IMG/VR virus record: IMGVR_UViG_3300036987_000137
Location: 1 to 38,578 of that record
DNA length: 38,578 bases
From: a virus
Lineage: Duplodnaviria; Caudoviricetes
Direction: 5' to 3' (one strand)
Positions 1 to 25,234 of this stretch are shown here, in pieces. Each line of letters starts with the position of its first letter. Position 1 is the first letter of the stretch. Below the pieces are notes generated by a model. It saw only the letters and a program-made list of their open reading frames with translations. It was not told the origin of the DNA and made no database searches. A program made the position numbers and the translations under genes.

Positions 1-31
1 TCGCATGCTCTACCAACTGAGCTACCTGGGC
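1..31 (-). tRNA. Host tRNA, 5' half only, probably tRNA-Phe (anticodon lies outside the window)
   Basis: Reverse complement reads GCCCAGGTAGCTCAGTTGGTAGAGCATGCGA: acceptor 5' strand, D-arm GCTC/GAGC and start of the anticodon stem, as recalled for alphaproteobacterial tRNA-Phe. Confidence 0.85.
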
Positions 32-54
32 TCGCGCGGACGCGATGTGTCGGG

Positions 55-83
55 CTTATAGAAAGCGCGCAACGACTTGTCCA
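55..83 (-). promoter_or_regulatory. Sigma70 promoter of the host tRNA
   Basis: Minus strand TGGACA (83-78), 17 bp spacer, TATAAG (60-55), upstream of the tRNA 5' end at 31. Confidence 0.7.
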
Positions 84-105
84 GACCCGCTAGGGTGGCG
101 AATCC

Positions 106-264
106 TGTAACGCGACAGATCACATGTAACGCGACAGATCAGATGGCCCAGGCGGGTTTAGGTGGGATTGCGCGGGATTGAGTGGTCATAGGGCCCGGAA
201 AAGCGGGCGATGGCGCATTCCGCAGGGCTTTGATGCGGTATGCGCCGCGACAGATCAAATGGCC
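106..264 (+). repeat. Prophage left end: three putative transposase-binding direct repeats
   Basis: TGTAACGCGACAGATCA at 106-122 and 125-141, plus TGCGCCGCGACAGATCAAATGGCC at 241-264; consensus TGnnnCGCGACAGATCAnATG. The first copy starts with the TG typical of Mu-family ends. Confidence 0.8.
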
Positions 265-557
265 TAAAATCTTGCGCGGCGCGGCGCCTAGTAAATCAAA
301 AAAGCCCGAAAAAGCGGGAGTTAAAGCTTGGCCTGGCACGCGAACTCGGAAGTCAGCGCCGATCGAGAGTGCAAGGATCAAAGCAGCGGAAACGTCCAAA
401 CATCTAAGGAGAGCGCCCAGTCTGAAACAGTCTAGTATACTTGTAAACTAGGAATTGGAATGGGCTTCTAAGGGCGGTCCGGGCCGATCGGAATTCCGCA
501 AAGCGCCCGAAGTGGACTTTGGCAGTATGCACTTAACTTAGCAAGCCGCATAAAAAT

Positions 558-1013
558 CAGGCAGCGCGCCGGTTCCACAGGTGGCGCAGACGTAGACTCG
601 ACAAAAAATAGCGAATCGGCTCACCATCCTCGCGCCGATCTTCACAGGATCGAGAGCGCCTCTCTCGGCAACCTTGCGCCATCGGCAAGCCCACGATCAG
701 TTAGCTAAGCGCAGGCGAATCGCTGGCGCAAACGCAGGCGGATAAGGCACGTGGGGGCTACCGGAAGCGGTCTAGAACGCGGATGGTGGGCCGATAGAGA
801 CCTGCGAGCGACGGCTCATTCGCAACGCGTGACGTGAACGCTTCCCTTTAAGGGTCGAGCCGGCGTGATCCGAGGTCAACGAGCTATGCGCTCACAACCT
901 CGTAGCAAGGCGAAGTGAAGGTTGATCTAGCTGCCTGCCTATGGCCGGTTGTCTGGTTAATCAGCCTTTTCGTTTGAACCACGGCGGGAGCCTTCGGGCT
1001 CCCGTTTCTCTTT
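558..1013 (+). ncRNA. Putative large structured non-coding RNA of unknown family (5' end may extend to ~450)
   Basis: Nested helices 558-565/930-937, 615-629/781-795 (15 bp), 690-695/750-755, 799-803/873-877 and 895-900/919-924, plus many small hairpins. G-U wobbles favour the + strand. No credible ORF; ends at a terminator. Confidence 0.6.
984..1013 (+). terminator. Rho-independent terminator
   Basis: GCGGGAGCC-TTCG-GGCTCCCGT, a 9-bp stem with a C(UUCG)G tetraloop, followed by TTCTCTTT. Confidence 0.8.
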
Positions 1014-1147: not shown

Positions 1148-1738
1148 GTGTCAAAGCGCGATCCATTGAAACGGCTTATCAAGAAGTACCCTCCGCCTGA
1201 AGACCTGGAGGGAATCATGGGGAGACTGTCCTCAGAATCTGATCGTAGCGCAGCGATTATAGCGGCTGGAATTTTAGAGGGGCTTCTCGAACGGATAATC
1301 ATATACCGTCTTGCGAATAAGGATCCAAATCTAATCGGAAAGCTCTTTAACAACCGCGGTCCTCTATCTGATTTCCACTCAAAAATACTTATAGCAAGCG
1401 CATTAGGGATAATCTCGCAGCTATGCGAGAATGACATGCACCGAGTTAAAGCTATTAGGAATGTTTTTGCTCACGCCGTAAACCAAGTAACATTTGACAC
1501 GCCTGAGATAGCTACGGAAATTGACGAGATAAATATCATAAACGTCATGTATAGAGCGAAGCCAGACGGCAGAGATGGAATGAAAAAACTAAACAATAAG
1601 AGCGCTTATATCCTTGCTGTCAACTTAATGTGTATTGCCTATGACGGCTTCCACCAAAAGGCTGGAGGGAGCCCAATCATAACTTATTATTCCGACTCTC
1701 AACCGCGCGAACGCGGCACATTTCATCAAAAATCGTAG
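1148..1738 (+). CDS. MtlR/DUF4145-like HEPN-domain protein, putative RNase
   Basis: SDRSAAIIAAGILEGLL helix, GPLSDFHSKI..A.ALGII, and IRNVFAH (RxxxxH). AT-rich. GTG at 1148 follows a purine-rich RBS; the ORF is open from 1079. Confidence 0.75.
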   Translation: MSKRDPLKRLIKKYPPPEDLEGIMGRLSSESDRSAAIIAAGILEGLLERIIIYRLANKDPNLIGKLFNNRGPLSDFHSKILIASALGIISQLCENDMHRVKAIRNVFAHAVNQVTFDTPEIATEIDEINIINVMYRAKPDGRDGMKKLNNKSAYILAVNLMCIAYDGFHQKAGGSPIITYYSDSQPRERGTFHQKS

Positions 1739-1761: not shown

Positions 1762-2304
1762 CTAGCCTTCAATAATATTTCCCCATTTCTCTTTAACTTT
1801 AGCTTCAAAAGCATCGAAATTCGATAGTCTTGAAAGCGTGGATGTTAGTGAAATAGTACGGATAGCACCTAGAAATATGCAAATCTGCCCTAATGTTAGA
1901 CTAAATATTGATAAGTAACGCGGTAAAGAGCCTACCGAGATTATGCCTGCTATCTTTTCTTTTTCCAAATCAAATGCGCGCATCAGCGCAGATAACTTGC
2001 TTGCGGTGCTGATATCGATAAACGTACAAGACAGCTGTATGAGAACTATGCCCATCGAATAGTAAGCTATACTAAACATCATAACCCGAGCGGTTTTTGC
2101 TATTGTCATTATAACATCTTCTCTCATGCCCACGATGCTTTTATATTCCGCTATAGCCTTGTCTCTCCGTTTTAAGATAGATGCGTCGCGTCTTTTAGAG
2201 AACCAAAACTCAATACCTGTCTGATTTTTATTTATAAAATAGGTGGATATAACGCCGATTACGAGGCTAATGGGAACAGCTATGTAGTTGGGGATGTCCG
2301 ACAT
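1762..2304 (-). CDS. AT-rich membrane protein (about 3 hydrophobic segments), unknown function
   Basis: Hydrophobic stretches YIAVPISLVIGVISTYFI, VMMFSIAYYSMGIVLIQLSCTFI and YLSIFSLTLGQICIFLGAI. RBS AAGGGG precedes ATG 2304; the ORF is open to 2313. Confidence 0.75.
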   Translation of the reverse strand: MSDIPNYIAVPISLVIGVISTYFINKNQTGIEFWFSKRRDASILKRRDKAIAEYKSIVGMREDVIMTIAKTARVMMFSIAYYSMGIVLIQLSCTFIDISTASKLSALMRAFDLEKEKIAGIISVGSLPRYLSIFSLTLGQICIFLGAIRTISLTSTLSRLSNFDAFEAKVKEKWGNIIEG

Positions 2305-2691
2305 CACTTTCACCCCTTAAGAGTTGCACGCATCTGCGAATCACTCTCGTTCAGGCTTCACAACATATCCGGCGCAGGCTGGGTTTGCCAATTACGCTGC
2401 TTATGGACAAATAAACTCTCCGGAGACGTTATTCATTACAAATACACTTGCATAGGTCGGGACAATTCGCGCGATTAAGTTGCTCGATCTGAGAGACGCC
2501 GCTTCGGGTCACAATCGGAAATTCAAAATAACCCACCACCGCCGCGCCCTGTTGGCTTTGCCTATGCCAAGAAAATAGGTGTCGTTCTCGGTGTGCGCCT
2601 CACGGATAATCCGGTCGATACAAGACCAAGAGTCTCTATTCGACTCCATAAAAAGAAGGGCGGGGATCGATTCCGAACATCCTGGCCTGGA

Positions 2692-3940: not shown

Positions 3941-4147
3941 ATGTCGCATAAGGAGCTGCTTAAGCAGGGTCTACGCCGTCAACTGGCGGATGGAAAAACA
4001 CTCGCCGACATCATCGTAGAGTTGTCGTTAGGGCTGCTCGTCGATGTCGACGCGGGCGAGCTCAGCACATCCGAAGCTCTGGCGATTTTCAACCTTTACC
4101 AAAAGGCGCTGCGGGATATGGCGAAGGATGAGGGTCGCGCACTATGA
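3941..4147 (+). CDS. Hypothetical protein, 68 aa
   Basis: GGAGA RBS before ATG 3941; ATGA overlap with the next gene. Confidence 0.65.
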   Translation: MSHKELLKQGLRRQLADGKTLADIIVELSLGLLVDVDAGELSTSEALAIFNLYQKALRDMAKDEGRAL

Positions 4148-25157: not shown

Positions 25158-25234
25158 TGCGGGGTAGAGCAGCCCGGTAGCTCGCTTGGCTCATAACCAA
25201 GAGGTCGCCAGTTCGAATCTGGCCTCCGCAACCA
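25158..25234 (+). tRNA. Phage-encoded tRNA-Met(CAT), initiator-like
   Basis: TGCGGGG/CTCCGCA acceptor stem, GAGC/GCTC D-stem, CTTGG-CTCATAA-CCAAG anticodon arm, GCCAG-TTCGAAT-CTGGC T-arm, encoded ACCA end. Confidence 0.93.

Follow-up and report, generated by a model that had tools for sequence, protein, structure and literature searches.

The question raised by this locus is whether positions 450 to 1013, near the left end of a prophage, give rise to a large noncoding RNA, as a first-pass annotation had proposed, or to something else. The window, by which we mean the whole 38,578-nt stretch of DNA that was analyzed, is a Mu-like transposable prophage in which repressor, transposase, Gam, and Mu-type head and tail genes were identified. 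The closest relative sharing its left end (L003, with a transposase 89% identical) matches window positions 1 to 458 only and then diverges, and we therefore regard the region as accessory cargo. None of 28 transposase-anchored Mu-like phage loci carries it. As set out below, the region represents an uncatalogued family of small-peptide mRNAs whose leaders have two self-complementary loops and a predicted switch backed by covariation (Table 1).

Table 1. Features in and next to the region, in window coordinates
Feature	Position	Strand	Remarks
Possible degenerate IS1595-family terminal inverted repeat	521-542	+	16/22 nt match in L369
Basic-frame relic, QAARRFHRWRRRRLDKK then stop	558-611	+	No start codon; frame that follows IS1595 transposases
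Candidate sigma70 promoter, TCGAC(T/A)-N17/18-CAnnnT	598-627	+	Spacing fits 11 of 15 loci, all chosen for having TCGAC
Structured leader (5' UTR)	615-885	+	RNAalifold, 11 homologs
Hairpin 1	758-789 (758-763/784-789, 767-769/778-780)	+	Loop TCTAGA, 771-776
Alternative hairpin, state A	834-858	+	z ≤ −1.5 in 17/24 loci
Hairpin 2, state B	844-875	+	Anti-SD CCCT 844-847 and SD GAGG 872-875 at base
Hydrophobic-peptide ORF	886-977	+	Frameshifted near 910-911
Convergent small basic ORF, 69 aa, ..LATSPQPKPKK..	958-1166	−	Overlaps terminator and ORF 3' end
Intrinsic terminator	983-1013	+	Kept in homologs
MtlR/DUF4145-like passenger ORF, RNVFAH motif	1157-1738	+	Pfam MtlR, E = 2e-7; start uncertain

Several other features of the phage were seen in passing. 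In both the window (1 to 31, minus strand) and L003 (about 4000 to 4065), about 75 to 95 nt separate the prophage left end from the 5' portion of a tRNA gene, read in L003 as having a GAA anticodon; a left-end site common to the two phages is odd for a Mu-like transposable phage. The repeats TGTAACGCGACAGATCA at 106 to 122 and 125 to 141 (a tandem pair, single in L003), with a partial third copy at 246 to 257, are likely transposase-binding sites marking the left end. Far downstream, a tRNA-Met(CAT) gene (25158 to 25234, plus strand) lies inside the late operon, 3' of the major capsid gene, and PHROGs matches indicate several tail-fiber-like genes in series between 29764 and 37638.

A small hydrophobic-peptide ORF

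The region had been described as free of ORFs, which proved wrong on both strands: positions 886 to 977 contain a small ORF whose frame is interrupted by a 1-nt shift, which had hidden it from the first reading, and the minus-strand ORF running from 1166 to 958 enters the region as well. In the window, the frame opened by the ATG at 886 reads MRSQPRSKAK and stops at 918, and the remainder continues in the next frame to the TGA at 977 (EVKVDLAACLWPVVWLISLFV, 912 to 977), with 19 of 23 residues identical to the intact peptide P0104. Near 910-911, one extra base is present in contigs of two other studies (runs X3 and X7). Run X2, which comes from a third study, matches the window letter for letter from 769 to 1021, frameshift included; since the window version recurs unchanged in this separate study, we consider the frameshift natural. 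The GTGA overlap at 915 to 918 might permit a 20-aa re-start product. One further copy (L372) has a frameshift of its own, bringing the independently frameshifted copies to 2 of 24, as would suit a costly product.

In homologs, the ORF was recognized between a GAGG-type Shine-Dalgarno (SD) site and the terminator, and it encodes 27 to 34 aa with a basic start, an alternating V/I stretch, and a hydrophobic helix. Over 22 intact ORFs, divergence at the three codon positions was 0.53/0.35/0.66, GRAVY ranged from 0.66 to 2.29 (mean, 1.22), and net charge ranged from +1 to +5. AlphaFold predicts an extended N-terminal half and a helix at 15 to 29 (pLDDT, 86). Thirteen homologous loci found by DNA comprise nine with an intact adjacent ORF, one with a frameshift (L372), one in which an insertion sequence (IS) separates leader and intact ORF (L336/L393), and two fragments, whereas the ORFs of 13 of the 24 analyzed loci are intact by selection because those loci were found through the peptide. 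The insertion in L336/L393 (genome G381) places about 1.6 kb of IS sequence between leader and ORF.

The peptide has no named relatives among the collections searched. Five seed peptides matched no family in Pfam or NCBIfam, none of the 68 peptide relatives scanned (out of 109) matched a toxin family, and the known type I toxin models (Hok, Ldr, Fst, Ibs, TisB, ShoB, TxpA, AapA, and others in Pfam/NCBIfam) gave no sequence match. The ESM Atlas returned only unnamed clusters (score, 0.82), which we treat as leads only. A lipoprotein reading, suggested by a LAAC lipobox, was rejected, as the cysteine occurs in only 70 of 109 relatives and no hydrophobic region precedes it. The region is almost certainly a coding mRNA with a structured leader.

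Homologs and their distribution

Homologous loci share one anatomy, namely, a structured leader of about 250 to 300 nt, an SD site, an ORF of 27 to 34 codons, and an intrinsic terminator, and they are carried by phages, IS1595 elements, plasmids, and chromosomes of alphaproteobacteria. Pattern scans of 120 + 6 + 28 viral, 98 genome, and 52 metagenome loci yielded one homolog (L051 and its duplicates), which lies beside a terminase gene in an unrelated phage locus (E = 6e-18), and a further viral pattern recovered L374 (= L370). Searching sampled alphaproteobacterial genomes with DNA brought in L333, L336, L369 to L372, L375 to L377, and L379 to L381. In one such search, 24 of 401 genomes matched at E ≤ 0.01 and a profile check kept only L333 and L336; a further 11 genome matches all failed that check, and L373 was dropped as a chance match. 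BLASTN of positions 430 to 1030 against phages and plasmids gave only short chance or terminator matches, and further DNA and peptide searches of phages and plasmids gave nothing or chance matches, except for three matches in a plasmid collection.

A five-sequence peptide profile recovered 109 representatives of clusters defined at 50% identity (E ≤ 0.001) among 1.84 billion proteins. Of these, 54 are 27 to 34 aa long, and most of the longer ones are upstream start calls with the same peptide end. A 55-sequence profile matched 4 of 251 genomes in a class-level and 6 of 251 in an order-level alphaproteobacterial sample, always with one copy per genome; in a gammaproteobacterial sample, 1 of 181 genomes matched and was judged a chance match on inspection. 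Named carriers include R. leguminosarum WSM1325, S. meliloti Ak57, and A. rubi W2/73, in which the ORF is not given as a CDS among the gene-table rows listed. These results define an unnamed, widespread small-protein family, together with its mRNA, in alphaproteobacteria, with cultured carriers that can be named.

After removal of duplicates (L149, L259, L287, L368, L374, L378, and L389 to L392), 24 loci were analyzed: the window, 10 found by DNA, and 13 found by protein. L383, L393, and L398, being diverged or split, were excluded from the leader alignments. Mobile contexts include prophages (L051, L370/L374, and L387) and plasmids (L386 and L388). In the plasmid database, the small ORF at 2998 to 3090 of L387 (S. 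meliloti Ak57) is called "PDC-198 beta-lactamase" by RGI, evidently a false call on this 30-codon frame.

Leader structure and a predicted switch at the SD site

All five long-range pairings of the first-pass annotation are present in the window, namely, an outer helix (558-565/930-937, 8 bp), a long helix (615-629/781-795, 15 bp with one G-U), a shorter helix (799-803/873-877), and the two pairings of a pseudoknot (947-951/962-966 and 954-958/977-981), and every hairpin that it listed folds locally. Nevertheless, the stretch as a whole folds no better than shuffled sequences (z = −1.18 on the plus strand and −1.27 on the minus strand); 615 to 795 taken alone folds better than they do (z = −3.4). 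The absence of a recognizable RNA class was borne out, since the region has no Rfam match and no tmRNA was found by ARAGORN or Rfam. Across 20 homologous loci, Rfam covariance models matched only tRNAs and an unrelated ar35, and the GOLLD covariance model gave no match.

Comparison with homologs separates the parts of this fold that are conserved from those that are not. The base helix of hairpin 690-755, the outer 4 bp of the long helix, and the terminator are kept, whereas other conserved folds take the place of hairpin 760-771 and helix 799-803/873-877. The outer helix, which pairs a relic of an IS1595 tail with coding sequence, is supported in only 1 of 13 homologs. The proposed pseudoknot lies within the coding frame, and run X9 carries three synonymous changes there, two of which break its pairs, a comparison resting on three listed changes among 8 differences. 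A suggested 5' extension at 465 to 512 is not conserved, and 465 to 540 folds no better than shuffles (z = +0.5). The proposed novel large phage noncoding RNA thus stands as a conserved, uncatalogued, plus-strand structured RNA ending at the terminator near 1010, but its 3' third is a protein-coding frame, and it also occurs in IS1595 elements, plasmids, and chromosomes.

The leader itself shows the compensatory changes expected of a structured RNA. In an RNAalifold alignment of 11 homologs, 18 of 27 consensus pairs have a compensatory change, and 92.5% of alignment cells are paired versus 32 to 41% in slid controls, a generous comparison because the consensus structure came from the same alignment. 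In the consensus fold, 784-789 pairs with 758-763 rather than as the inner part of the 15-bp helix. The full long helix may be an alternative state, since it beats shuffles in 5 of 22 loci (3' arm misanchored in L371 and L376) and 12 to 15 of its 15 positions can pair in 9 of 12 loci (5' arm misanchored in L051 and L371). As a separate observation, in L369 a repeat element of about 118 nt (approximately 950 to 1062) interrupts hairpin 1 at its TCTAGA palindrome and duplicates this palindrome.

The 60 nt ahead of the start codon are predicted to adopt two mutually exclusive folds. In state A, the left arm of hairpin 2 is drawn into an alternative hairpin and the SD site is free, whereas in state B hairpin 2, which contains a near-perfect palindrome (852 to 871, core GCCGGC 859 to 864), sequesters it. 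With palindrome centers set by eye, state B is predicted to be more stable than state A in 22 of 24 loci, and at least three of the four SD core positions are predicted to be paired in 22 of 24 loci (an ensemble check covered 10 loci). In the window, state A reaches a z of only −0.8, and state B is weak (−10.8 versus about −20 kcal/mol in most loci), in part because of a mismatch at 858, a position that is paired in runs X3, X5, and X7. With a frameshift, one palindrome mismatch, and a weakened state B, the window copy has probably been inactivated.

Two palindromic loops

Both hairpins present self-complementary sequences in their loops. At the apex of hairpin 2 (site 2), a zero-loop palindrome of at least 6 nt occurs in 23 of 24 loci versus 87 of 312 control windows, with shuffles giving 9.0 ± 2.4 loci (maximum, 16). 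At site 1 (loop 771-776), a palindrome of at least 6 nt occurs in 19 of 23 loci, with 10 different hexamers, versus 50 of 437 controls and at most 10 loci in shuffles; it precedes the end of the long-helix arm by 22 nt and falls in a loop of the consensus fold. With palindrome centers set by eye, the central tetramer of site 2 is self-complementary in 23 of 24 loci, with six different tetramers (terminator loops, 0/24), and the predicted gain from self-dimerization is −10.6 to −20.7 kcal/mol versus −1.8 to −16.1 kcal/mol for terminators. Loci found by protein alone show the palindrome at site 2 in 12 of 13 cases and at site 1 in 7 of 10. Because the loci are related, such counts overstate independent events, and counting distinct palindromes gives a better guide. 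Pairs flanking the palindromes are often G-U. L336/L393 is the sole copy with a nonpalindromic apex on the SD hairpin.

Since adjacent bases cannot pair within one strand, pairing between molecules is the simplest reading, and the sequence comparisons make it probable that loops 771-776 and 859-864 pair between RNA molecules. Kretsch et al. argued in the same way from covariation for the kissing loops that cryo-EM revealed in OLE and GOLLD (PMC12286853). The leader offers unusually clean covariation evidence for self-pairing of a bacterial mRNA through two loops.

Candidate promoter, terminator, and IS1595 relics

A terminator hairpin of −15 kcal/mol or stronger lies straight after the stop codon in all 24 loci, with at least four T in 8 nt in 23 of them. 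A simple scan for sigma70 sites gave no promoter for this region. The candidate in Table 1 would set the transcript start near 634, and it overlaps the 5' arm of the long helix (615-629). L370 carries a 35-nt direct repeat ending CTCGACTC (approximately 875 to 910 and 1280 to 1315, copies 405 nt apart); its upstream copy is followed 17 nt later by CAnnnT, which supports the promoter reading.

Traces of an IS1595-family element lie upstream. The repeat at 521 to 542, which we tentatively take to be an IS1595 end, has its counterpart 370 nt downstream of the ORF in the IS1595-linked locus L369, and no partner end or target duplication for it was found in the window. The basic frame at 558 to 611 recurs in L371, L375, L376, L380, L394, and L396, and two contigs of run X3 match 558 to 604 with unrelated flanks. 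The conserved sequence (K/Q-A-R/K-R-F-L-R-W-R-K) comes after IS1595 transposases, out of frame with them, and is possibly a frameshift extension of the transposase. An intact IS1595 element is absent from the window locus, which has no transposase in the first 6 kb, no right end, and no duplication. Among 27 oriented loci, a transposase or its remnant lies upstream in 7, a lower bound because the flanks are mostly 1.5 kb.

Convergent ORF and passenger genes

An ORF related to the convergent one occurs in 9 of 24 loci, mostly IS1595 linked, with two further motif matches judged to be due to chance; it has no Pfam match. This basic family (..RRDEVLRRMLNTPPKPHK..) is present in the window, L369, L371, L376, L380, L384, L393, L394, and L396, and in several loci its start codon overlaps the start of a passenger gene head to head. 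The convergent ORF (958 to 1166) is a candidate source of cis-antisense RNA. A search of the 24 loci for a separate antisense gene, by exact complements of at least 13 nt nearby, gave nothing convincing.

The passenger genes downstream differ between loci. MtlR or HEPN-like matches were obtained for three, in two cases below cutoff, and PADLOC matched none of 11 neighbors. The MtlR/DUF4145-like ORF of the window has 42 homologs, no viral relatives found, and no link to the RNA in other loci. We considered this ORF as a toxin with the RNA as its type III antitoxin and rejected the idea as a general rule because relatives of the RNA lack the MtlR ORF. GC content in this cargo is low (45% for 1157 to 1738, plus strand, and 39% for 1762 to 2313, minus strand, versus 63%); the first ORF has an RxxxxH motif (possible HEPN nuclease), and the second is a convergent membrane-type ORF. 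Positions 1157 to 2313 are possibly defense cargo.

What the module may do

Arguing by analogy, we give roughly even odds to a type I toxin-like module whose self-pairing mRNA keeps its ribosome-binding site (RBS) shut, because its anatomy matches the type I toxin mRNA as described in the accessible part of PMC8594479. Leader, SD site, 27- to 34-aa ORF, and terminator travel together among phages, IS1595 elements, and plasmids, as their conservation shows. Ahead of the SD site, predictions backed by covariation suggest that state A would free the site and that the stabler state B would pair it and display a palindromic loop. Loops 771-776 and 859-864, judging from their palindrome-preserving changes, would pair between RNA molecules, and loop 2 could extend to an intermolecular duplex of about 20 bp beside the SD site, which would lock the off state and which RNase III might cut. 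By analogy, the peptide would insert in the inner membrane via its C-terminal helix and harm the host when made, and such harm would favor retention of the mobile element or abort infection. In IS1595-linked copies, antisense RNA from the convergent ORF may add control. Several observations speak against a toxin: no antitoxin was found, and the convergent ORF is present in only 9 of 24 loci; copies are single, whereas type I loci are often tandem; the SD-freeing fold, lying 5', would form first in transcription; and the peptide is unrelated in sequence to any Pfam/NCBIfam toxin.

Some room, albeit well below even odds, goes to a nontoxic small membrane protein, acting, e.g., in superinfection exclusion or in the regulation of another membrane protein, whose signal-responsive leader possibly also gates read-through into the passenger. 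The failure to find an antitoxin and the early SD-freeing fold suit it, as do same-strand passengers starting 120 to 190 nt past the stop in several IS-linked loci, three of them with weak or clear MtlR/HEPN-like matches; against it stand the strong terminator directly after the stop in 24/24 loci, the many loci whose downstream genes are unrelated, missing, or oppositely oriented, and the lack of a PADLOC match among 11 neighbors.

More speculatively, the toxin-like mRNA could be its own antitoxin. Above a threshold concentration, mRNAs would lock each other's RBS in the duplex of about 20 bp, or build a higher-order assembly, and be silenced or cut; dilution when transcription stops or the element is lost would free monomers, and peptide would be made. 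If true, this would amount to concentration sensing by mRNA self-association in bacteria.

We are doubtful that the RNA is instead a dual-function, multimeric structural RNA like OLE, ROOL, and GOLLD, assembled via two homotypic kissing loops, its peptide acting not as a toxin but as a partner or an anchor in the membrane. The two palindromic loops covary independently and could form chains or rings beyond dimers, covariation reaches well beyond the SD site, the location in phages and mobile elements fits, and OLE and GOLLD use palindromic loops likewise in the accessible text of PMC12286853. The leader, however, is only about 270 nt long with a variable middle and tolerates a 118-nt insertion (L369) and 5' truncation (L333 and L377), and its best-conserved folds sit at the SD site and switch it.

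It is improbable that the palindromes act as DNA elements (operators or cruciforms) and that the RNA does not dimerize. Palindromes are typical of protein-binding sites, and in several copies site 1 looks like a −10 box, but here the sequence varies freely while complementarity is kept (10 hexamers and 6 tetramers), flanking pairs are often G-U, and both palindromes lie in loops of covarying RNA hairpins. The purely noncoding phage RNA first proposed would suit the broken ORF of the window copy, the lack of an Rfam match, and the persistence of an identical frameshifted copy in another study, but is very unlikely given the coding signature, the conserved start, SD site, and stop, the 109 protein relatives, and the nonconserved outer helix and pseudoknot.

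Comparison with known systems

Type I toxin-antitoxin systems with structured toxin mRNAs are among the closest comparators. Like type I toxin-antitoxin systems (AapA/IsoA, Hok/Sok, TisB/IstR, DinQ/AgrB, and Fst/RNAII), the module combines a hydrophobic peptide of 20 to 60 aa with an mRNA of roughly 350 to 450 nt, an anti-SD hairpin just upstream of the SD site, a 3' terminator, and alternative folds (predicted here), and it resides on mobile elements and goes unannotated in genome records (here, L386 to L388). Size, SD/anti-SD arrangement, and terminator of type I toxin mRNAs are described in the accessible part of PMC8594479. The module differs in its extended, alternating V/I N-terminal half before the helix, its alphaproteobacterial hosts, its two palindromic loops, the lack of a dedicated antisense RNA among our searches, and the 5' position of the SD-freeing fold; the long-distance 5'-3' pairing of some families has no conserved counterpart, as the outer helix appears in 1 of 13 homologs. 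In aapA, according to the accessible text of PMC6733600, transient hairpins block the SD site; here the order is reversed, in that the SD-freeing fold would form first.

Type I families are phylogenetically narrow, as stated in the accessible part of PMC5367252. Among literature listings and the opening lines of abstracts, we found no account of the peptide motifs, no type I family described in Alphaproteobacteria, and no toxin mRNA dimerizing through palindromes; T1TAdb, subscription papers, and small-protein catalogs may nonetheless include the peptides. The supplements of Fozo et al. 2010 (PMC2887945; file 3 excluded), whose rows are identifiers rather than sequences, contain none of four peptide motifs.

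In several loci the module lies directly behind a transposase (Pfam PF12762), with variable passengers after it, as in IS1595 elements with passenger genes. The tIS concept covers such IS1595-family elements; unlike them, most copies of the module, the window included, have no transposase within the fetched flanks. The HIV-1 dimerization initiation site, SL1, bears a 6-nt palindrome in its loop, for which several alternative palindromes exist in nature. Hairpin 1 resembles SL1 in having a lower stem, a purine-rich internal loop, a short stem, and a palindrome flanked by unpaired bases, but the module is a bacterial mRNA leader, and we draw an analogy only, implying no homology.

With OLE, ROOL, and GOLLD, the module shares loops that switch between palindromes, a signature of symmetric intermolecular kissing loops in the accessible text of PMC12286853; unlike them, it has no Rfam match, is much shorter, encodes a peptide, and is followed directly by a terminator. 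If self-pairing does control translation, it would be a regulatory principle for which the literature listings and abstract openings gave no paper, and it would link the ornate multimeric RNAs of phages to toxin mRNAs.
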